Source of the DNA: an uncultured Ureaplasma sp. | Lineage (GTDB): Bacteria; Bacillota_I; Bacilli_A; Mycoplasmatales; Mycoplasmoidaceae | DNA: 24,000 nucleotides | Assembly: GCA_944322645.1 (NCBI GenBank) | Contig: CALUPI010000033.1 | Span: 1-24,000 of the forward strand | Direction: 5' to 3' | Shown: one piece after another, positions 1-20,073 of the stretch | Layout of the letters: each line of letters begins with the position of its first letter | Position numbering within the stretch: the stretch's first letter is position 1 | Notes under the pieces: generated by a model | Seen by the model: only the letters and a program-made list of their open reading frames with translations | Told to the model about the DNA's origin: nothing | Databases searched by the model: none | Program-made: the position numbers and the translations under genes

Positions 1-51
1 AAACATTTTGTCAATTAAATATCTTTCTTCTTTATTTAGTTGATAATACAT
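1..51 (-). CDS. 5' end of a minus-strand CDS running off the window (17 codons visible: MYYQLNKEERYLIDKMF). Function unknown; the N-terminus is faintly reminiscent of IS30-type transposase HTH starts.
   Basis: The reverse complement of 1-64 reads gtcAGGAGaaatt ATG TAT TAT CAA CTA AAT AAA GAA GAA AGA TAT TTA ATT GAC AAA ATG TTT. A good SD (AGGAG) lies 5 nt upstream of the ATG at 51-49. Only 17 aa are visible, so the product is not assignable. Confidence 0.3.
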   Translation of the reverse strand, partial: MYYQLNKEERYLIDKMF

Positions 52-125
52 AATTTCTCCTGACAAAATAAAAATAACAACCACAACTATATTATATAGT
101 GTTGCAGTTGTTATTTGAATGTGGG

Positions 126-152
126 AAGCATTGATAATCAATGCTTTTTTTA
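126..152 (+). terminator. Orphan rho-independent-terminator-like hairpin with no plus-strand gene upstream in the window
   Basis: A perfect 8-9 bp stem (A)AGCATTGA (126/127-134) pairs with TCAATGCT(T) (138-145/146) around loop TAA, followed by a T-run (146-150, then more T). On the minus strand it is not followed by a T-run. Confidence 0.45.
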
Positions 153-216
153 TTATTTTTTTTAAAATTTTTATATAATTAAATTGTAATTATTCTAGAA
201 GAGGTGGTGAATAAAC

Positions 217-387
217 ATGTCAAGAACTGTTATTGTTGAAGATAATGATGTTGAAAAAGCATTAAAAAAATTTAAAAGAATTGCTAATGAAACTAAAAAA
301 GATACAAAACGTCATGAATATTATTTAAGACCAGGTCTTCGTAGAAAAGAAAAATCAAAAGAAGCTAGAAAACATAAAATATATTAA
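217..387 (+). CDS. rpsU: 30S ribosomal protein bS21
   Basis: 56-codon ORF MSRTVIVEDNDVEKALKKFKRIANETKKDTKRHEYYLRPGLRRKEKSKEARKHKIY. It has the typical S21 size and basic C-terminus (EYY.RPG.RRKEK). An SD-like GAGGTGGTGA sits at 201-210. The ORF is missing from the supplied track, presumably because of its short length. Confidence 0.93.
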   Translation: MSRTVIVEDNDVEKALKKFKRIANETKKDTKRHEYYLRPGLRRKEKSKEARKHKIY

Positions 388-411
388 TACGGTTAATTCC
401 GTATTTTTTTA
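387..411 (+). terminator. Intrinsic terminator after rpsU
   Basis: Stem ATACGG (387-392) pairs with CCGTAT (399-404) around loop TTAATT, running into a T7 tract (404-410). Confidence 0.7.
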
Positions 412-471
412 TTTTATAAATATATTAGTAAAAAAAATTTTTTAAACATTTATTATTATTGGGTGAAAAAA

Positions 472-2340
472 ATGAAAATAATTAATCAAACTAGTAATAA
501 TGAATGTGGCATTTGTGCTATTAATATGATAATTAATTATTATTATCATTCTGATAGAGACCGAAAATTAGAAATCTATTCATATACTAAAAACATGGAT
601 AAAAATGGAATTAGTATGATAGAAATAGAAAATATATTTCAAAAATTTAATATTAATGCTATTTCATATGAATGTAAGTTTTCTGAAATCTTTAGTATAA
701 ATTCACCATTTATAATGGTAATGAAATATAATGATAATCTTCATTATGTAGTAGGTAAAGTTAAGAATAATAAATTATATATTTATGATCCTATTGGCAA
801 AGTTAAAATTTATACTAAAAATGACAAATTAAATGAATTCTTAGGTTATGTAATATGCACTAGCTATAAAAAACAAAAAATTAAACCTATAAATTTAAAT
901 TTAAAAATTATTAAAAATGTATCAATAACAATGAATATTATTTTTACATTTATTAATACATTTGAATTCATTTTTTCATTATTAATATCATTTATTTTAT
1001 CTAAAATTGTTAATATTAATTTTGAACAAACATTTGAGGAAAGTATATGAAAAATATGTTTTATATATATTGTCATATTACTATTAAGCGAATTATTTAA
1101 TTATCTAAATAAAATTATTAAAAATTTTTATTTTTCAAAAGTATTTCCAGCAAGTATTGATATTTTCTGACAAAAAATTAATAATAAAACATCTTCTTTT
1201 TTTCAAATGTACTCAATACATGAATTATCACAAATTTATATGTATACATATAAAATAATAAATTTTATTTGTATATATACATCTGATATATTTTCAGATA
1301 TGATAGTGCTAATTTTAAGTTTTATTCTTGGAATCATTATTAATCCCCTCAATTTATATTTTTATTTATTATTAATATTAATTAATTTCTTTATTATGTA
1401 TTTAAATATAAAATTAGACAAAAAACTGGTTAATTTTGCACATAAACAAAATCCAATACATGATAAAAAAATACTCAATTTTTTTGAAAACAAAATTAAT
1501 AATATAAATTATCAAACAGACACAAAAATATCAAAAGAAATTCAACTTGAACTTAATAATACTTTATGAAAAACAATTGAAATTCAAAATAAAATAAGTT
1601 TATTAGATTGTATAGATAAAATAATCAATTCTTTAATTCAATTCATATTAATAATTTTAATAATTAAAAATGAAAATGATTTTAGCTTAATTTTTTTAAA
1701 CTTAAATATTGTAAATTTATATAATAAATCATTAAAATCAATTTTAAATTATCTAAATGAGTATTCAAATATTAACTTAATTTTGGATATAGTTAAAAAA
1801 ATATATTCTATTAATGAAAATAATAATTCAAAAATAATACCATTTAAAAAAATAGATAATATTATTATTGGTAATAATAATTATTCAAAAAATATATGTA
1901 TTAATACAAAAGATATTTTAGAAAATCCATTTATTAATAATCTAATAAATTTAAATGAATTTGACTATTCAATTAAAATAAATGGTATTGACATAAATAA
2001 AATCAATAAAAGTTTATTTATAAAAAAAATGTTAATATTAATTACCCCAAAAAAATATAAAAATAATAATATAAGTACATTTTTATCAAACTCTGTTTAT
2101 GAATATTGTTCTCAAATTGATAAGGATTTTAATAGAGAAATAAATTTATTAATAATATTATCAAATTTAATAAATGAAGAAAATAAATTAATCATTTTAA
2201 ATGATAATCTATTAGATATAGATGATGATTTTTTTCAAAAAGAAATTAAAAAAATGTTATTAGAAATTAATAAAAAAAATTTTTTAATAAGTAATTGTAA
2301 TAATAAAAAAATTATTGATATTTATGATAACTTTATCTAA
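472..2340 (+). CDS. Peptidase-C39-domain ABC exporter (PCAT, bacteriocin-processing/export type) with a degenerate nucleotide-binding domain
   Basis: Track ORFs 463-1050, 1207-1569 and 1783-2340 are all in the same frame. They are separated only by TGA codons, and I saw no TAA/TAG on reading through, giving one ORF of about 622-625 codons. The N-terminus INQTSNNECGICAINMIINYY ... NLHYVVG ... YIYDPIG matches the C39 Gln/Cys/His/Asp pattern (Q-x5-C-G, HxVV, DP). The middle holds several hydrophobic TM segments. The C-terminus aligns to an ABC NBD (IKINGIDINKI..., KLIILNDNLLDIDDD), but the Walker A, signature, Walker B Glu and H-loop are all substituted. The start is either ATG 472 (SD-like GGGTGA at 461-466) or GTG 463. 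Confidence 0.8.
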
Positions 2341-2689
2341 TCAATGAAAAAAAATTATTATTATCGTATCAATTATTATTTTTTTAATAATATTTTGCAT
2401 TTTATTTATTGTACTTTTCAAATTTGATAAATATTATGAATCGTATTTTCAAAATTATAATGGAACTGAATATTTAATTGTTAATAAACAAACATATCAT
2501 TTTTTAAATCTTCAAGGACAAATTAGTATAAAATATAATGATCTAAATTATTCTATAAATTATCAATTTATAAATAAATATGATGATATGTATGTATTTA
2601 TTACAGATTTTAATAAACAAATACAAAATAATAATATATGTTATATACTTGTTAAAAATATAACAATATTCGATTTATTGAAAGGATAA
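2324..2689 (+). CDS. Small single-pass membrane protein (121 aa); candidate accessory or immunity protein of the peptide-export locus
   Basis: ATG 2324 overlaps the PCAT stop by 17 nt. Translation: MITLSNQ-W-KKIIIIVSIIIFLIIFCILFIVLFKFDKYYESYFQNYNGTEYLIVNKQ...ITIFDLLKG*. An in-frame TGA at 2345-2347 hides it from the standard-code track. It has one strong N-terminal TM helix and then a polar domain of about 90 aa. The stop at 2687-2689 lies 1 nt before the next ATG. Confidence 0.55.
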
Positions 2690-2690
2690 T

Positions 2691-2951
2691 ATGAAAATAT
2701 TAAACAATGAAAAAAAAGTTAAAATTTATGGATCTGGTGGATACCCTTGAAACACTTCACTATTTACAGCTATGAGTTGTCAAGCGGTTAATAGTATATT
2801 AGGCTTAGTAAACCAAATTATATACAATAATAATAGTAATCCAGCTTTTAAAACTTCCAAAAGTTATGATGATACATCATCAAGAATGTATATAAGGGCA
2901 AGTAAAAATGCTTTATCATCAACATTATCATATGGGAGTCCGTATTTTTAA
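2691..2951 (+). CDS. Double-glycine-leader peptide A (86 aa precursor); candidate bacteriocin or secreted peptide
   Basis: MKILNNEKKVKIYGSGG YPWNTSLFTAMSCQAVNSILGLVNQIIYNNNSNPAFKTSKSYDDTSSRMYIRASKNALSSTLSYGSPYF*. The leader aligns without gaps to that of peptide B. There is an in-frame TGA (Trp20) at 2748-2750, and the stop at 2949-2951 overlaps the next ATG (TAATG). Confidence 0.6.
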
Positions 2952-3169
2952 TGAAACAATTAAATAATAATATTAAACAAATAAAAGCTGGTGGAATTTT
3001 TGGATATGGAGGTTGAGGTTTTGCTACAATGGCTAACGTATTAATAAATGGTGCGGTTGGGATAGTTAGTAATTCATTGAATATTGCAAATTCTGCTAAA
3101 CATTCTTCCAATCAACCAAATTATGTATATAAACCTACATTATCAACAAAATTTAATTTATTTAATTAA
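2951..3169 (+). CDS. Double-glycine-leader peptide B (72 aa precursor); candidate bacteriocin or secreted peptide
   Basis: MKQLNNNIKQIKAGG IFGYGGWGFATMANVLINGAVGIVSNSLNIANSAKHSSNQPNYVYKPTLSTKFNLFN*. It has a 15-aa leader ending in GG with Leu at -12 and Met at -15, then a Gly-rich hydrophobic core. There is an in-frame TGA (Trp22) at 3014-3016. It is translationally coupled to peptide A. Confidence 0.65.
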
Positions 3170-3973
3170 ATTATAAAAATATTTCATTTTCAAATGCATT
3201 TTTAAACGATAACGTAATATTTTCAAACTAAATGAATTAGAAAATGTTCATTGATAAGAAAAACAAATAGCTACAAAGCTCATTTCTAATAATAAGAAAT
3301 AATCTAATTTTGCAATTTCACTATATATTAATATTTCATTCTTTTTTCATATAGTTTCTTTAATTAAATTAGCAAAATCTCAATATGGATGATTAATTCT
3401 TGATCATTCAAAATCAATAAACTTAATTTTATTATTATTCGAGATTAAGATATTTTCTAAATTTAAGTCATTATGACTAAAACCCCAAAAAGTAGTAGAA
3501 ATTTTTTCTACTATTTTTTTGTATTTTGTTAAATATATTTTTTTTAATTTACATTTTGGTAAAAAAATATAATAGTCATGTCTTAAAATATTAGAACCAG
3601 AAACATCAAGTGAATGATATTGGTTAATTTCATTAAAAATATTATTTAAAATATCTCTATTTTTGAGATCCTTTTTGTTTAATACTCTGCCTTTAATTCA
3701 AATTTTTATAGCATTTCCATTTTTTATATCATAATACAAATAATCATTATTATGAATTAGATTTAAACATCTATATTCATTATTTCTATTGACAATATCA
3801 TTATTATTCCCAATTCTGACTTGATATTTATTATTATCATTCATAATAAAGCAAAAAGAAGTGTTAGTAAAACCATGATGTATTTTTTTAATAAATTTAA
3901 TATCATCTAATTTATATTTATTTTTAAAAAAAGTTAAAAACATTTTGATTGCAATTTTTTTTGATTTAATCAT
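3158..3973 (-). CDS. Choline/aminoglycoside phosphotransferase-family kinase (LicA/APH-like)
   Basis: Track ORF 3698-3973 continues through four TGA codons to TAA at 3160-3158 (271 aa). It contains GFTNTSF (nucleotide-binding region), the Brenner catalytic motif HNDLNLENIL (HxDxxxxN) and IDFEW (the DxE/DFG-equivalent), typical of choline-kinase/APH-fold enzymes. Confidence 0.7.
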
Positions 3974-3989
3974 ATATTATAATAATAAT

Positions 3990-4703
3990 ATGAAATCTAA
4001 TAAACATATATTAATAATTCCAAATTATGATCAAAAATTAGAAATTATTCAAAAAAAATATACTAATATTATTGAAAAACAATCTAATATTGAGTTTTTT
4101 TCATGGGAACAATTTTATGATTTAGGTAATCAAATAACATTTGATATATATTTTGAAAAAATACAAAAATTCTTAAAAACTCAATCTAATAAAAATACAA
4201 TTATTATTGCCGAAGGAATAAGTGCAGCTCTTGTAAATTCTATTGATTTTGAATTTAATAAAAAAATTTTGATTTCGCCTGTATTTGCAAAATCATATGT
4301 AAATCCATATACTACTAATCTTCCTTCATATAAACCAAATGTTAAAAATTATATTTTAAAAATTCAAAAAGAGTATTTTAATAGTCATATAAATTATTGA
4401 AATTGAGATCAATATCTAAAATTAAATTATGAATTTTATATTCAACATTATGATTTTTTTGATACAGTTATTGCACAATTTAGCATATATGAAAACTTAA
4501 AAAAAATCTATAAAAATGAAAAAAAATTCCTGAAAAATACTTTTATATTAGCAGGTATATATAATAAACAATCAATATTCAAAAAAGTTTTGAAATATTG
4601 CAAAAAATATAATTTAACATTAATTCCATTTAATTATTCATCTGAACATTTAATAGACGAAGAAAAAATTTATTTTAAGAATGTAATTAATAAAATTATT
4701 TAA
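3990..4703 (+). CDS. Hypothetical protein, possibly alpha/beta-hydrolase-like
   Basis: MKSNKHILIIPNYDQ... The likely start is ATG 3990, inside track ORF 3945-4400. It continues through TGA codons at 4398 and 4404 to TAA at 4701-4703 (237 aa). IIIAEGISAALV weakly resembles a GxSxG nucleophile elbow. I recognise no other motif. Confidence 0.5.
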
Positions 4704-5676
4704 TTTTATTTCAAACTAAATCTAAAAATTTTTTAGCATCAACATTCATATAACATATATCATACAATGTAGTAAACAATGGTAAATTAAGATTAAATTT
4801 CAAAATATATTTATAAATATAATCAATTGTTTTATAACCTTCCACAGTTTGATCTTTTAAATCAATTAATGTTTGATTAAGTCCTTTTTGTCCTATTTCA
4901 TAACCAAAACGATAATTACGTGACATGTCGCTGCTACATGTTAAAAATATATCACCAACACCAAAAAAATTTAATAATTTGCTATCATTGTGACCAGTTA
5001 ATGTAGAAATTATTTTTTGAATTTCACTTAATCCAATTGTTAAAAATGCAGATTGAGTATTCATAGAATTATCCAAAAATGATACTAAACCTAATGCAAT
5101 TGCTAAAGAATTTTTAATTGATGATACTAATGATGCAACATATTCATCGCCAAAATATACTAATTTGAAGTATGAATTATTAAAAATTGAACTAACATAA
5201 TTTGCAACATCAACAGAATCTGAAACTACATTAATAATAGTTTTGTGTTTATTCAAAAGATCTTCTGCAAATGATGGGCCAACAATTAATGCATACTTTT
5301 TAATTTTATTCCCTTCAAATAAATCTGATCAAACACCAGATTTTGATGTTGGATTTAATCCTTTTGCAGAATTAATTATTGTTATATTTTCATTTAAAAA
5401 TGGACTTATTTCATTATATATAGATTCTAGCGATTTAGATGGTGCACACAATAAAATAATATCAATATTTTCATTGAATGCTGCTAAATAATTATCAAAG
5501 CATTTTTTAGGAGATAAAATTTTAATCTTCGGAAAAAGAGGATGTTGACCAGACATTATTTTTTTGGATACATCTATATTTTTAGAATAAAAATAAACAT
5601 TATGTTTATTTTCAATTAATGGCTGACTTAATGCAGTTCCAAAAGCGCCAGATCCTATTATTAATATATTTGCCAT
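4696..5676 (-). CDS. gpsA: NAD(P)H-dependent glycerol-3-phosphate dehydrogenase
   Basis: Track ORFs 5329-5676 and 4711-5256 are in one frame, joined through TGA (326 aa). It has an N-terminal Rossmann motif MANILIIGSGAFGTAL, an internal GPSFAED, and ...KNSLAIALG...GVGDIFLTCSSDMSRNYRFG..., characteristic of GpsA. The SD AAAGGAG (reverse complement of 5684-5690) lies upstream. Confidence 0.92.
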
Positions 5677-7023: not shown

Positions 7024-7419
7024 TTAACTACTTATTGAAAAATCTAATACATCAAAATTGATTAATAAATCATATAAATGTCTTAATGCATTTTTACGTT
7101 TTACAAAATATGAACTTTGACTATATGGTGTTTGTGAATAATGAATATTGTCTATATATGTTGTTTTTAAGATATTTCTTTCATCTTCATTTAGTTCATT
7201 CAAAATTAAATCTATTAAATTAATAAATTTAGACATTTTTTGTAATTTAATATTAATTTCATGTTCTTCTGCATTTATGATTTTATTAATTATTTCTTCC
7301 TTTTTAATCAATTCGATATGTTCAACTTTAAATTTATAATTTTTATATGTTCTAAATAGATATTTTGCATCCTTAATAAATTTTTTTTCATCCATAAAAG
7401 AATCACCTACTTTTGACAT
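7024..7419 (-). CDS. Hypothetical small protein with a sigma-70 region-4 / ArpU-RinA-like C-terminus (possible transcription factor)
   Basis: 131-aa ORF ending with TAA. The C-terminus LNEDERNILKTTYIDN....YSQSSYFVKRKNALRHL resembles the L..ER.I....Y...(HTH)...S.sTyyR.k.kAL pattern of small sigma/ArpU-type activators. An alternative start is ATG 7395 (MDEKKF), preceded by AGGTGA. Confidence 0.55.
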   Translation of the reverse strand: MSKVGDSFMDEKKFIKDAKYLFRTYKNYKFKVEHIELIKKEEIINKIINAEEHEINIKLQKMSKFINLIDLILNELNEDERNILKTTYIDNIHYSQTPYSQSSYFVKRKNALRHLYDLLINFDVLDFSISS

Positions 7420-7517: not shown

Positions 7518-8610
7518 ATGAGAGAAAAAAATAAATTAAATTGATCAATCATTCTATTATTTTTATTTATTACAACTATAATTATGTTTTATAGTTTTAT
7601 ATCAGCATGATATTTAATAATAATGATTCCTATCATTATATATTTTATAATCACAAAAATAAATAAAAAAATTTGAATTTACTTAATCTTAACAATAATA
7701 ATTGTATGTATATTTTATATAATCCAAAATTATTGGAAATCCAATATTAATATATTTAACAATTATTTATCTAATACAAATTTTTATTCAGGAAGAGATT
7801 GACTATTAAATAAAATAAACCAGCTTTATAAAAATGAATATTCTAATGAATTTATTAAATTATTAATGTTTAATGAAAAAAATTATTATGGAAATTTTTA
7901 TCAAAATGTTAGCAATTTAGGAATTACTTATCTATTTGTAATTTCAGGAATGCATATAAATATAATACTATTACCATTACGTTATATATTTAGAAAAAAA
8001 AATCCATATATTTTATTATTTTTCAATAATTTTTTGTTTTTTATATGGCTATGTTTTACAATATTCAATTAGTCTTCTTAGGATTTTATTGACAAATATT
8101 ATTAGACTATTGAGTAAAAATAAAATCAACAATATTAGTGCAACTATTATTAGTGGTTGAATATTAATAATTTTATTTAATACAATTTGTTATTCATCTA
8201 GTTTTATAATGTCCTATCTAACCACACTATTAATAATTTGAATGAACAAAATTATAAAAAATAGAATTATAATGTTTTTTGCAATTAATGTTTTTTGTTT
8301 TTTATTAACAATACCTATAATATTAAAAATAAATCCAAAAATTAATATTTTTATTTTTTTCTATAATTTATTATTTTGCAACTTAATTTCATTTATATAT
8401 ATCTTTTTATTTATATTTATGTTTATTCCACAATTTGCAATTATTAATGAAAAAATAATCATTTTTCTTCAAGATTTAATAACTTTTTCTAATATTAATT
8501 CTATTTTTATTCATATTTCTAAATTTTTTTCATGATCAAATAGTATATATTTTTCAGCATTTTTAGGGATTTTTTTAATTATTTTGCATAAAAATGAAAA
8601 AAAATTTTAA
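7518..8610 (+). pseudogene. comEC: ComEC/Rec2-family competence membrane channel, interrupted by a +1 frame change in a T-rich tract (pseudogene, sequencing error or slippage-dependent)
   Basis: The frame-0 part runs 7518-8072 (MREKNKLN-W-SIILLF...NLGITYLFVISGMHINIIL..., the ComEC SGxH motif) and ends at TAG 8070-8072. The homologous continuation is in frame +1 from about 8041 to TAA 8608-8610 (...LYGYVLQYSISLLRILLTNII..., equivalent to G.s.S.lRa..m of ComEC). The frames overlap around the T5-G-T6 tract at 8031-8042. Confidence 0.65.
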
Positions 8611-14621: not shown

Positions 14622-14701
14622 TGGGGCGACTAACGGGGCTCGAACCCGTGAAAATACCTGAGTCACAGTCAGGCGTGTTAACCAACTTCACCATAATCGC
14701 C
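14622..14701 (-). tRNA. tRNA-His (anticodon GTG) with encoded G-1 and CCA
   Basis: The reverse complement is GGCGATTATGGTGAAGTTGGTTAACACGCCTGACTGTGACTCAGGTATTTTCACGGGTTCGAGCCCCGTTAGTCGCCCCA. The acceptor stem is GCGATTA/TAGTCGC with an extra 5' G pairing C73 (a His identity element). The anticodon arm is CCTGA-CTGTGAC-TCAGG, the T-arm is ACGGG-TTCGAGC-CCCGT, and it ends in a 3' CCA. The variable region looks slightly long (7 nt) by my hand fold. Confidence 0.85.
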
Positions 14702-14773: not shown

Positions 14774-16516
14774 ATGTTTTCAAATAAAAATATTCAATAC
14801 TTTAAATCTAATAAATATCAAAAAGTTTCCTTAAATTTATTAAAGGATTTTTTGCGTGAAAGTATAATTTTTGTTGTATTTTGATTTTTAAATGGATTAA
14901 TACCAATTCTAATATGTTTAATATCAGCAAGCATTAATCAATATGGAGCATATTTTGTTTTAGGTATTGGTTATATTACTGCCTTTCAATTAGCATATGT
15001 ACAAATTGGTTGAGTTGTATCAATTGCAATATTATATGTAATTAAAAAGATGGCCACCGATCCAATTAATAGTGCAAATTATAAAAAATTATATTTTAAT
15101 GCATTTATAACTATGTCAATAATTGCATTTGGATTAATACCATTATTTTTTGGTCCATCATTTATTTATAATTATTTTGCTAATAATCATGTAAATACAA
15201 TTATTTCTCAAGAAATTGCTAAAAACTATATTTACGGACTATTGATATATATTGGTGTAAACGTCATAATAAGTTTTATTACTATGAATATCCATACTAA
15301 GCATGGTTTAAAATTATCACTACCTATTCTAATCGGTTCCAATGTTATAATAATTGGATTGTGTGCAATACTAACATTACTTGTTCAATATGATGATATT
15401 CAAACACATGCATTAATGATAGGTATGTCAATTAGTATTGGTTCATTGATATCATTAATATTATTAATTATAATTTCATGATTTTTTGGTGATATAAGAG
15501 ACTTATTTCAAAAATTTGACTCACCAACATTTAAATTTTTATTTAAATCAATTTTTAAACAAGCTGCATCTGTATTAAGTATTCAAGTAATTAAAGGAAT
15601 AGTATTAATAGGTTTAGGAATTGCTATTAGTGCAACTATGAATATGACATCACCTATGGGGTATCAATTATCTAGAGTAGTTTGATATAATTATCTATAC
15701 TTAATCCCATTTTTAGGTTATGGTCTAGGTGATGCAATGATGTTTTATGGAATGAGAAAAAATATTACTACATCATACAAAAATTTACATTGAAATGTAT
15801 CTATATTGATAACAATGACAATAATCCTTCAAATTGGGATTGCAATAGGTTTATACTTTACTATAGAGCCGTTATGTTCTTATTATGTAAGATATAAAGA
15901 AATTGATTGTTCATATATTAATTTAAATAATGTGGATTTAATCTATACTATGAACTTTATTGCTAATAAACTTAATTTAACCCAAGCACAATTAGATCGT
16001 ATTATTAATTTAATTAATTGATGTAATAAACATCCAACTATTGGTGAACCAATATTAAATGTAATGAAAATAGCAATTGTACAAATTTTATCAAATAATA
16101 ATATGACTGGTTCAGGGTTAAGTAGTTATTTAGTTTTAAACAATAAAGCTTATATTTATATATCAATATATTCAGTCTGCTATTCTTCGGCAATTTTAAT
16201 TAATAATATTACATTATCATCAAAGCATCGTTATTCAAATACCTTTGAAACCATTTTTCTAATTGTTATGCAGGCAATTGTTATTAGTTCTGTTGTAGCT
16301 ATGGGAGTAGAATTACAATCAACAAGTAAAACTTTTCCATACTTAGATGCGTGATCATTTCCATTAGCAGTTGCTGGTGCTGGAGCATTTATTATGTATA
16401 TTGTAATGTATCTAATAAATGTAAATAAAATTAAAAAGCAAGACAAAAACAAAACTGGAATTTATAAAATAAATACTTGAAATCAAAATCCAAAAGATAT
16501 AGTGATTGATATCTAA
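14774..16516 (+). CDS. Polytopic membrane transporter, MATE/MOP-superfamily-like
   Basis: ATG 14774 and track ORFs 15050, 15806 and 16064 share one frame, joined through seven TGA codons, to TAA 16514-16516 (580 aa). It has at least 12 predicted hydrophobic helices in two halves. Family assignment rests on topology and size resemblance to mollicute MATE annotations only. Confidence 0.6.
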
Positions 16517-18558: not shown

Positions 18559-20073
18559 TTACTTTTTAAAAAAATTATGAACATTTAATTTTTCAAAAAG
18601 TTTTAATAATTCGGAATTAATATTATTTTTATTAAGATATATTAATCAACGAAAGACAAGATTATCAGGTTCATTTTTATTATATATAGGAGTTACCATA
18701 CCATCAATTCATTCATCAGATTGAATAACACCTCAATATATCCCTAATAATTGACATGATTCATTAATTACCATTGAACCAGATGATCCATGTCCTAAAT
18801 TAATACCAGAAAATAAATAATTGTTTTCTCAATCATATGGATAATAGTAATTTCGATTATCAAATCAAAGATTAATTTCATTTCTAACATTGTATATATT
18901 TTTTTTAATGATATTAGAAGATATGGTTCTACAATTATATGTAACATATGAAGAATTATTTGAATATGAAATTCCAGGATAACCTGCTACTGTATAAAAT
19001 TTACTTAAATTAGATTCAAAACTTTGAAATAAAAAGTTTTTCTCAATTTCATCTTTATTTTCATCATATCCTTCATCAATTAATTCATTTAAGAATTTTA
19101 CTTTTTGTATATATGTTCTATTAATTATATTTTCATTAATTGTGGTTGGGACACAAAAAATATTAAATATAGAATTAACAATATATTTATTTACAAAATT
19201 ATATTTTGAAGTATTAATATCATTTGGATTTAATTGAAATTCTATTATACCCATATCATTTGCTGCTGATATATCATTTTGATTATATTTATAAGAGTTA
19301 TGAACAATATATTGATTATCAATATATAATGATATATTTTTATTATTTTTACTATTTGTGTATATTAAGTTAGCAATATATGGATTATTATTAGGTATAT
19401 TTTTACCTTCAAAAATTGCCCCTAATGGAATTATTCTTTTATAATATTCATTAAAATTTAATCAATATTTATTTAATCCATCCTTATAATTGATAGGTAT
19501 TTTATTTAATTCATTATATTCTGTACTATTTTTGTTACCATTTGGTTGACTTAAATATGTATTTAAAATACCTGAGATTGGATTACTATTATATGGTATA
19601 AAAAAGTTTATTTGCTCATAGTTATTTAAATTATAAATAACACTATAACCAATATTTAATACATGAATATTTGTTGCAAAATAATATGTATTATAATTAT
19701 CTTCTATATTGTAATCAAATAGTCATGTAGTTCCTGAAGATATGTTATAAAGTGCAGCATCATTTTGATTATTTAATAAATAGTAAAAAATATTTCAATA
19801 GTTAGTATTTTGAGGATTATCAATTATATTTTTTAATAATTCTGAATAATAATTAGGATTATTATCTATATAAAATAATAAGGATAATGAATTGTTATTA
19901 ATGTATAATTCTTGTTCATTATTAACATCTTGATATAAAACATCATCATTTATAATGTGGTTTTTATTATTTTGACTCACAATAATAGAAGTTGCAATTA
20001 TTGATCCTGTTATTGCACCTATTCCTAATATTAATCCACAAATATAAATATATTTTTTTGTTGTCTTATGCAT
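18559..20073 (-). CDS. Membrane-anchored DUF31-family putative serine peptidase (mycoplasma S1-like peptidase)
   Basis: It has an N-terminal signal anchor MHKTTKKYIYICGLILGIGAITGSIIATSIIV, then YYFATNIHVL (the conserved ATN.HV His motif of DUF31) and INLGHGSSGSMV (GxSGS catalytic-Ser-like motif). Track ORFs 19795-20073 and 18865-19254 are in one frame, joined by TGA codons, to TAA 18561-18559 (504 aa). Confidence 0.72.

Follow-up and report, generated by a model that had tools for sequence, protein, structure and literature searches.

ATP-binding cassette (ABC) transporters that contain a peptidase (PCATs) such as PCAT1 of Clostridium thermocellum (PDB 4RY2/6V9Z) and ComA of Streptococcus (PDB 8HF4) are arranged in the order C39 peptidase, six-helix membrane domain and nucleotide-binding domain (NBD), and genes for double-glycine (GG)-type substrates lie alongside. 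Class IIb bacteriocin loci of the lactococcin G and plantaricin E/F types contain two adjacent GG-leader genes encoding cationic amphipathic peptides, and the operon also includes a C39 transporter and an accessory gene for a small membrane protein. In mollicutes, C39-ABC homologues are known from Mycoplasma genitalium, i.e. the sunT-like MG_390 with the small co-transcribed gene MG_389 on its 3' side, and from the minimal cell JCVI-syn3A, for which Breuer et al. describe gene 0401 as homologous to C39 transporters and name no candidate double-glycine peptide (PMC6609329). Breuer et al. regard this as being in line with other mycoplasmas, citing Dirix 2004, so that identifiable double-glycine peptides are noted to be lacking for these homologues (PMC6609329). 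MG_390 is non-essential with the deletion strain ΔMG_390 being viable, is regulated by sigma-20 and upon deletion results in 10-fold lower recombination (PMC4446450, PMC6105099); syn3A 0401 appears to be dispensable as well. Because no substrate is known, the roles proposed for the mycoplasma C39-ABC proteins, e.g. in lipoyl-peptide import, are speculative, and it is a lipoyl-peptide role that 0401 was tentatively given (PMC6609329). Here, we analysed a stretch of 24,000 nucleotides from an uncultured Ureaplasma sp. (contig CALUPI010000033.1, positions 1-24,000 of the forward strand; hereafter the window) and describe a four-gene cassette at positions 472-3169, which encodes a C39 protein of this kind and, unlike MG_390 and 0401, has two candidate substrates directly downstream.

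The window reads with genetic code 4, the four open reading frames (ORFs) each containing one or more in-frame TGA codons while TGG is absent. Translated with table 4, the cassette consists of four tightly packed co-directional genes on the + strand. Gene 1 (472-2340; 622 aa) encodes a C39 peptidase followed by the six-helix membrane domain of an ABC exporter and a vestigial NBD; gene 2 (2324-2689; 121 aa), overlapping gene 1 by 17 nt, encodes a single-pass, N-terminally anchored membrane protein; gene 3 (2691-2951), separated from gene 2 by a 1-nt gap and preceded by an AGGA ribosome-binding site 5 nt upstream, encodes an 86-aa pre-peptide; and gene 4 (2951-3169), sharing 1 nt with gene 3 within TAATG, encodes a pre-peptide of 72 aa. 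An initial annotation made from the DNA alone had described exactly this packing and had stated the locus to be invisible in the standard code, and both hold: under table 11 gene 1 falls apart into three fragments (195, 120 and 185 aa), the peptide genes stop after 19 and 21 codons, and an antisense ORF (2848-3111; 87 aa) becomes the longest ORF of the peptide region. The most economical reading of the locus is a pairing of a protease with its substrates. Our data suggest, with a probability of roughly 0.5, that the operon matures two conserved cationic peptides in a leader-dependent manner and releases them independently of ATP.

The N-terminal part of gene 1 (residues 1-132; 472-867, +) matches Pfam Peptidase_C39 (PF03412) over residues 2-132 with E=4.4e-21, and the score of 75.5 bits at a cutoff of 22 settles a test that had been set beforehand for the assignment. 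The four catalytic positions predicted at the outset are all present, namely Q6, C12 (TGT 505-507), H91 within HYVV and D106 within YDP; the numbering as Q9 and C15 had to be corrected. An alignment of 10 homologues contains Q6, C12 and H91 without exception and D106 in at least 90% of the sequences, showing the C39 domain to be real and catalytically complete. Translation almost certainly starts at ATG 472 rather than at GTG 463, because all orthologues open with MKI(I/T)..Q and because the sequence GGGTGA (461-466, +), which contains GTG 463, reads directly as a plausible ribosome-binding site of gene 1. The NCBIfam models FapD and FilB match the C39 domain as well. C39 domains have further known roles (FapD, FilB), showing that the removal of double-glycine leaders, put forward as the only known role of such domains, was too strong a statement.

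The similarity to PCAT1 and ComA, which are the best matches of gene 1 both by profile and by fold, extends through the complete membrane domain. This domain (residues ~145-447; 904-1812, +) aligns to that of ComA and is predicted to form six long helices (DSSP assignments 145-180, 189-237, 249-290, 294-343, 347-400 and 404-447). The profile of 10 homologues aligns over positions 9-458, i.e. through the C39 and the whole membrane domain, covering residues 14-474 of ComA and 17-384 of PCAT1, with only a faint match in the NBD within the segment following Walker A. In a Foldseek search, chains of PCAT1 were the best matches of the AlphaFold2 (AF2) model of gene 1 (probability 1.0, ~700 aligned columns). 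The model has a predicted local distance difference test (pLDDT) score of 71, with ~80-86 for the C39 domain and ~80 for the C-terminal alpha/beta domain.

This C-terminal domain (residues ~455-622; 1834-2340, +) keeps the alpha/beta fold of an NBD, is ~70 aa shorter than its canonical counterpart in the PCATs and has all ATP motifs replaced. We compared Walker A (GxxGxGK[ST]), the LSGGQ signature, Walker B (hhhhDE) and the H-loop His column by column, revealing in the class of the window protein a substitution of GSGKST by DILENP and similar sequences, of LSGGQ by FNREI and similar sequences, of LLDE by ILND or LNN and of the H-loop His by Asn. Consistently, Peptidase_C39 was the only Pfam match of gene 1, ABC_membrane and ABC_tran being absent even at E<=1; against TIGR01193 (bacteriocin_ABC) the protein reaches 40.8 bits at a cutoff of 523.85; and no ABC-ATPase model of NCBIfam matches gene 1 or the NBD-less relatives P0024 and P0031, while the ATPase-competent relatives tested match several to dozens of them. 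The initial annotation of gene 1 as a functional PCAT is thus not supported, and we interpret the protein as being derived from a PCAT, with an NBD that is vestigial and catalytically dead, and not as a working ABC ATPase. Because every ATP motif is replaced, gene 1 would not be capable of powering transport by its own ATP hydrolysis and would lack the ATP-driven alternating-access cycle of PCAT1. A rescue by heterodimerisation with an ATPase-competent paralogue was considered and rejected, as in the sandwich dimer established for ABC proteins each of the two composite ATP sites would depend on a motif that the dead NBD would have to supply.

The loss of the motifs is shared by a whole class of proteins. 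An exhaustive profile search yielded 1,490 relatives of gene 1, and a motif scan of 122 full-length representatives shows Walker A, signature and Walker B to be absent from all members of a 600-640 aa class (~35 of the 122), including the family of the window, and to be retained in AT-rich relatives of 640-690 aa as well as in canonical PCATs of 700 aa and more. A neighbour-joining tree of the C39 and membrane regions, calculated without support values, places the NBD-less proteins in two clades, a window-type and a Ca. Malacoplasma girerdii-type clade, both of which appear to be long-lived. The protein of Ca. Malacoplasma girerdii (AIV03889.1/ASJ89403.1, annotated as 'ABC-type bacteriocin/lantibiotic exporter'; 617 aa) has an intact C39 and membrane domain and lacks the ATPase motifs, as does gene 1; it differs in belonging to the other clade and in being an orphan accompanied neither by gene 2 nor by peptides. 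In its genome (CP007711.1, 5001-11345), pstS-pstCA-pstB follow directly after the NBD-less C39 gene; M. genitalium pstS (MG_412) is sigma-20-regulated like MG_390, a link to this gene order that may be coincidental. For gene 1, the ratio of nonsynonymous to synonymous substitution rates (dN/dS) is 0.26-0.28 between strains, and the protein is full-length in lineages as distant as 26-30% identity, both of which argue against a pseudogene. One of two near-identical loci, L018 from a metagenome sample, has the C39 orthologue split into 358 + 286 aa (3660-5581), the other, L019, encoding it intact with 640 aa; the split is due either to an assembly error or to the gene being inactivated occasionally.

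The best family matches of genes 1 and 2, both below the cutoffs, are the mycoplasma-specific NCBIfam families NF045998 (Mbov_0121 family peptidase domain-containing ABC transporter) and NF045999 (MAG1140), respectively. Gene 1 reaches 121.3 bits against NF045998 at a cutoff of 500, residues 6-576 aligning to profile positions 2-598 of 673, whereas the true Mbov_0121 member P0098 (L014) scores 624.7 bits; true members keep a working NBD, which gene 1 does not. Gene 2 aligns end-to-end to NF045999 with 23.7 bits at a cutoff of 35, and six of its positional homologues do so with 14-31 bits, the family always being the sole or top match; these homologues include those located 3' of the true Mbov_0121 member (L014) and of an intermediate (L015), in which the two genes have the same adjacent and coupled order as in the window. 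The hydrophobic maximum of gene 2 lies at residues 11-29 (KD19 3.76). The 17-nt overlap, kept in every orthologous locus, couples gene 2 translationally to gene 1, and the end-to-end match suggests gene 2 to be a distant relative of MAG1140. Because its family accompanies C39 proteins even where peptide genes are absent (L014, L015), a role of gene 2 as an accessory subunit of the transporter is more likely than one in immunity. We therefore view the C39 protein and the small anchor protein as an old two-gene module of mollicutes and genes 1 and 2 as a putative distant branch of the Mbov_0121/MAG1140 pair. The pair itself is already known, is distributed mollicute-wide, is normally peptide-less, with no peptide genes found within 5 kb in the two Mbov_0121/MAG1140 loci examined, and is described in the literature as lacking substrates; due to this distant relationship, the combination of genes 1 and 2 in the cassette is nothing new.

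What distinguishes the window locus are the two pre-peptides and their common leader. Profile searches covering 5.8 billion proteins yielded 19 homologous clusters of gene 3 and 9 of gene 4. None of them has a name other than 'hypothetical' where there is one at all, apart from the label discussed below, and they are confined to one small clade, to which the cultured Ureaplasma ceti belongs; more divergent copies of gene 4 are present in L016 and L019. Members of both families have a variable N-terminus of ~15 residues followed by a strongly conserved body. A comparison of the two family profiles by hhalign aligns residues 1-18 only (E=1.1e-5, 44% identity), in agreement with the claim that the N-termini of both peptides are alike and end in a pair of small residues, and the pattern M-x-K-[LI]-x4-K-x2-[ILV]-x-[GAC][GSA...] describes the N-termini of both. 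A strict regular expression for this leader matched orthologues of genes 3 and 4 exclusively, with 0 false positives among 1,324 ORFs in 188 kb. A common leader on otherwise unrelated cargo is the signature of substrates handled by one processing machine.

The leader of gene 3 comprises residues 1-17 (2691-2741, +; MKILNNEKKVKIYGS/GG), for which cleavage is predicted after residue 15 (GS) or after residues 16-17 (GG), and the homologous leader of gene 4 residues 1-15 (2951-2995, +; MKQLNNNIKQIKAGG). We compared both to the features of GG-leaders, i.e. 15-30 residues ending in GG, GA or GS and forming an amphipathic helix in which positions -4, -7, -12 and -15 are hydrophobic. The leader of gene 3 has M at -15, L/I at -12 and I/L/V at -4, while position -7 is occupied by a Lys that is conserved; the leader of gene 4 is offset from this register by one residue. 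In the window, gene 4 carries GG at 14-15, and gene 3 has two such pairs in succession, GS (14-15) and GG (16-17). The leader is consistent across more than 28 sequences, most of which end in GG, GS, AG, SG or AS at 14-16, and it has textbook ...I-x-G-G ends in some lineages, e.g. MFKLNQNLKFNIYGG and MVKLNIDKKITIQGG. Because the pair at -2/-1 is variable, with GM, GL, AQ and CA occurring as outliers, the sequence does not pin down the cleavage site, which is thus a prediction.

The cargo of gene 3 is conserved and cationic, has ~70 aa and contains the motifs YPWN...GLxNQIxYN...DDTSS...NALSST; that of gene 4 is Gly-rich, amphipathic and cationic (GGWGxAT...N.LNI.NS.K...LF). The predicted mature peptides have 7.8 kDa and a charge of +2.7 (gene 3) and 6.1 kDa and +2.8 (gene 4), both being amphipathic. 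The AF2 model of gene 3 is of low confidence (pLDDT 59.5) and contains helices at 6-12 and 20-47 and a hairpin at 66-81; searching the PDB sequences with both peptide profiles returned chance-level matches only. The Pfam matches of genes 2-4, i.e. CCSMST1, OSTbeta, T26-6p and Lactococcin_972 (1 of 19 members, E=0.05), were discarded as noise. The homologue of gene 3 in U. ceti (P0194, 91 aa; L007, 8312-8587) is labelled 'Transketolase' by UniRef and has no such domain, evidently an annotation error. Among the four genes of the operon gene 3 is the best conserved, with identities of 69/50/51/49% to four divergent orthologues compared to 51/37/34/30% for gene 1. Between near-identical strains dN/dS is 0.04-0.10 for gene 3, with nearly all changes being synonymous, and 0.17-0.27 for gene 4, both based on small counts, and it is well under 1 for all four genes. 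The small ORFs are thus what they had been proposed to be, i.e. real genes, with conserved orthologues and dN/dS of 0.04-0.27 showing purifying selection, and they define two new, unannotated small-protein families.

The cassette occupies a conserved position in the window and in further loci, comprising near-identical strains (L011-L013), metagenome-assembled genomes (MAGs) similar to Ca. Ureaplasma intestinipullorum (L001-L003), a wild-bird gut assembly (L004), the cultured U. ceti (L007) as well as L005, L016, L017, L018 and L019. It is found at the same chromosomal position in at least eight divergent lineages with all four frames intact, in hosts as different as chicken, wild bird and marine mammal. 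It usually lies 3' of rpsU, in L018 and L019 3' of ruvX, and is followed by a choline-kinase-like gene, an ORF of ~240 aa, gpsA and der, and, where the loci reach farther, by a sigma-like ORF, ComEC and mraZ. This conservation points to vertical inheritance within the clade. The initial annotation had considered a strain-variable cassette and had named universally conserved core genes as the outcome that would speak against its interpretation; within the clade it is this latter picture that we observe. Scanning a genome collection with highly specific peptide patterns recovered four loci, a result which is not evidence of absence elsewhere, e.g. from human ureaplasmas. No credible leader-like small ORF was found within ~5 kb of orphan C39 genes, neither for the NBD-less proteins in L008, L009 and L010 (M. 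girerdii) nor for the ATPase-competent ones in L014 and L015.

Our analyses suggest the four genes to be transcribed as a unit. A terminator-like hairpin (386-405, +) with a 7-bp stem containing 3 G-C pairs, followed by a T-run, is positioned 3' of rpsU (217-387) and would be the upstream limit of the transcription unit of the cassette. Within 3.4 kb three such sites were found compared to 0.2 expected, and none within 463-3169; the presence of a terminator 5' of the cassette and the absence of internal ones suggest the four genes forming their own operon. The promoter scan is uninformative in such AT-rich DNA (56 sites compared to 49.5 expected). The GC content of the window is 17-25%, being lowest in positions 1-4000 (16.8-18.3% compared to 20-25% elsewhere), and N, I, K, F and Y make up 57% of gene 1. 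An RNA-based explanation of the locus was rejected, Rfam returning a single match in the window, a tRNA gene outside the cassette (14625-14700, -).

In the model that we infer for cleavage and its site, for export and its energy source and for the biological role, the cytoplasmic C39 domain of gene 1 would recognise the shared amphipathic leader M-x-K-L-x4-K-x2-[ILV]-x-[G/A][G/S] of the precursors encoded by genes 3 and 4 and would cleave behind the pair of small residues, near residue 15-17. The cargo would then enter or cross the six-helix membrane domain and be released independently of ATP, possibly by facilitated diffusion, by lateral partitioning of the amphipathic peptides or by use of the membrane potential. 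Dimerisation or scaffolding would be the only task left to the dead NBD, and gene 2 would act as a structural accessory subunit of the transporter and not as an immunity protein. The conservation throughout the clade and the lack of an immunity gene argue for a role of the peptides in the producer itself and not as arms-race bacteriocins, so that they may serve a conserved function of its own as a secreted or membrane-associated factor or as a signal.

Several observations weigh against this model. We know of no precedent for an ATP-independent ABC-type exporter. The structural model of gene 1 is of moderate confidence (pLDDT 71, predicted template modelling score 0.42) and was built on an alignment of 10 sequences. 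The leader is non-canonical, cationic and has Lys at -7, and its -2/-1 pair is not always GG, GA or GS; at E<=1, the curated models for leaders, bacteriocins and pheromones in Pfam and NCBIfam (e.g. TIGR01847, ComC or Bacteriocin_IIc) match none of the 19 + 9 family members. An ATPase-competent paralogue may be encoded elsewhere in the genome, of which the window covers 24 kb. Furthermore, gene 1 may act as a protease only, and the peptides themselves, with 6-8 kDa, positive charge (+2.7, +2.8), amphipathicity, richness in Gly and small-xxx-small motifs, have properties expected of a class IIb bacteriocin.

These properties support the alternative that the locus encodes a classical two-peptide, class IIb-like bacteriocin, an exported pair attacking the membranes of competitors with gene 2 or another gene conferring immunity. 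The presence of two adjacent genes with GG-type leaders beside a C39 transporter, the life of the hosts' bacteria in dense gut or mucosal communities and an annotation in Ca. M. girerdii that names a putative bacteriocin of class IIb (PMC10557491) are in line with this. In the searchable literature this annotation was all we found, and no experimentally characterised bacteriocin of mollicutes, as had been stated initially. Compared to class IIb loci, the window locus lacks an immunity gene as well as a regulatory kinase and a response regulator, is core-like, syntenic and slow-evolving, encodes peptides unrelated to the curated families, with 0 of 28 family members matching bacteriocin family models, and its exporter has no ATPase. 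The cassette being syntenic and vertically inherited within the clade argues against a typical strain-variable bacteriocin island; the transporters are merely 26-50% identical across lineages and the cargo evolves slower than the transporter, the reverse of what is typical for bacteriocin loci. There is no immunity-like multi-pass gene, the end of gene 4 being occupied by the convergent kinase-like gene, and the family of gene 2 is found elsewhere without peptides. Of the initial interpretation, the pairing of protease and substrate is supported as the most economical reading, and we consider a classical bacteriocin locus to be unlikely.

A peptide-signal module resembling streptococcal ComAB/ComC, in which a self-signal feeds into a recombination and horizontal gene transfer (HGT) programme of the sigma-20 type as in M. 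genitalium, is improbable. It is suggested by Ureaplasma and M. genitalium belonging to one family, the Mycoplasmoidaceae, and by the finding that the C39-ABC gene MG_390 and the downstream MG_389 are co-transcribed in the sigma-20 regulon and that recombination is 10-fold lower in ΔMG_390 (PMC4446450, PMC6105099). In addition, a sigma-like regulator of the MG284/MPN403 family and ComEC are located in conserved synteny ~4 kb downstream of the cassette. MPN313 (NF045747), the orthologue of the sigma-20 accessory protein MG_220 (rrlA/RrlA), is the sole family recurring in both peptide families, with weak matches for 4 of 9 members of the gene 4 family and 4 of 19 of the gene 3 family, best E-values of 0.0046 and 0.0013 and one match extending over residues 1-78 and profile positions 1-74 of 87. 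These matches reach 19 bits (19.1 at best, P0210, E=0.0013; 14.9 for gene 4 of the window and none for gene 3) at a cutoff of 100 and may be explained by composition. Moreover, ΔMG_390 barely alters sigma-20 activation (RecA reporter in 0.51% compared to 0.66% of cells), and because activation is nearly unchanged, RrlA seems to function independently of MG_390; the mature peptides with 57-71 aa would be far longer than known pheromones, and no receptor kinase is apparent in the window. The most far-reaching variant, an ATPase-free ABC-derived machine releasing RrlA-like self-signal peptides for sigma-20-type recombination and HGT as part of a linked, ancestral ComAB/ComC-like circuit of the Mycoplasmoidaceae, is a long shot, and equally so its corollary that the counterparts in M. 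genitalium (MG_390/MG_389 and rrlA) are scattered yet co-regulated.

Similarly doubtful is a protease-only function, according to which gene 1 would not transport but trim two small proteins remaining in the cytoplasm or at the inner leaflet, with its ABC parts acting as a scaffold. The loss of all ATPase motifs would be explained directly. C39 enzymes act as stand-alone maturation proteases elsewhere, FapD and FilB being the models that match the domain, the hydrophobicity of the cargo stays below the typical transmembrane threshold (KD19 maxima 1.26-1.33), and the weak resemblance to RrlA points to an intracellular regulator. Against this, the six-helix domain is kept over long evolutionary distances, a conservation not easily reconciled with simple anchoring. 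Further arguments are the extracytoplasmic domain of gene 2, its strict coupling to gene 1 and the lack of any other evident reason for a removable peptide leader. The reading as a decaying, now functionless relic of a former bacteriocin or PCAT locus in a very AT-rich genome, to which the GC content of the cassette (the lowest in the window with 17-18% compared to 20-25%), the lost NBD motifs and the split C39 gene in L018 might point, is disfavoured as highly improbable by four intact frames in at least eight divergent lineages, dN/dS well under 1 for all four genes, invariant C39 catalytic residues and the preserved overlap architecture.

The neighbours of the cassette in the window are housekeeping genes, among which no ABC ATPase, histidine kinase or immunity-like gene was detected. 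Downstream of gene 4 no gene follows on the + strand, the convergent choline-kinase-like gene overlapping the end of gene 4. The ORF between der and ComEC (7024-7419, -; 131 aa), conserved in synteny ~4 kb from the cassette, contains the C-terminal domain of the MG284/MPN403 family (NCBIfam 47.7 bits, cutoff 37.3) and weakly resembles sigma-70 ECF, RinA and ArpU regulators, suggesting its product to be a small sigma-like transcription factor; in M. genitalium, MG_285 and MG_286 adjoining MG_284 are sigma-20-regulated. The ComEC-like gene is split in the window into 7518-8072 (184 aa) and 8089-8610 (173 aa), both on the + strand, and is intact with 371 aa in L018 and L019; a frameshift, a pseudogene or an assembly error are possible explanations. 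Farther away, the window encodes a multi-pass membrane protein of 580 aa with no match in Pfam or NCBIfam (14774-16516, +) and a protein of 504 aa (18559-20073, -) that has a hydrophobic segment at its N-terminus and the DUF31 domain of Mycoplasma peptidases and probably belongs to the S1-like DUF31 family as a surface or lipoprotein protease. On a Ca. Ureaplasma intestinipullorum-like contig (L001, 1-1772), Cas1 and Cas2, i.e. a CRISPR-Cas adaptation module, are encoded ~4 kb upstream of the cassette.

As a summary, the cassette provides the first plausible and concrete candidate substrates for a branch of orphan C39 transporters of mollicutes, mycoplasma C39-ABC proteins being kept even in the minimal cell JCVI-syn3A and having repeatedly been noted to lack double-glycine substrates (PMC6609329). 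Genes 3 and 4 add two new small-protein families that are visible only with genetic code 4. Gene 1 appears to represent a long-lived PCAT-derived lineage in which the leader protease and the membrane domain are intact and every ATP motif is replaced, posing to ABC-transporter biology the mechanistic question of whether peptides may be released independently of ATP or whether such proteins function as proteases only. Because the cassette is present in the cultivable U. ceti, the question of the substrates of these transporters is directly testable.

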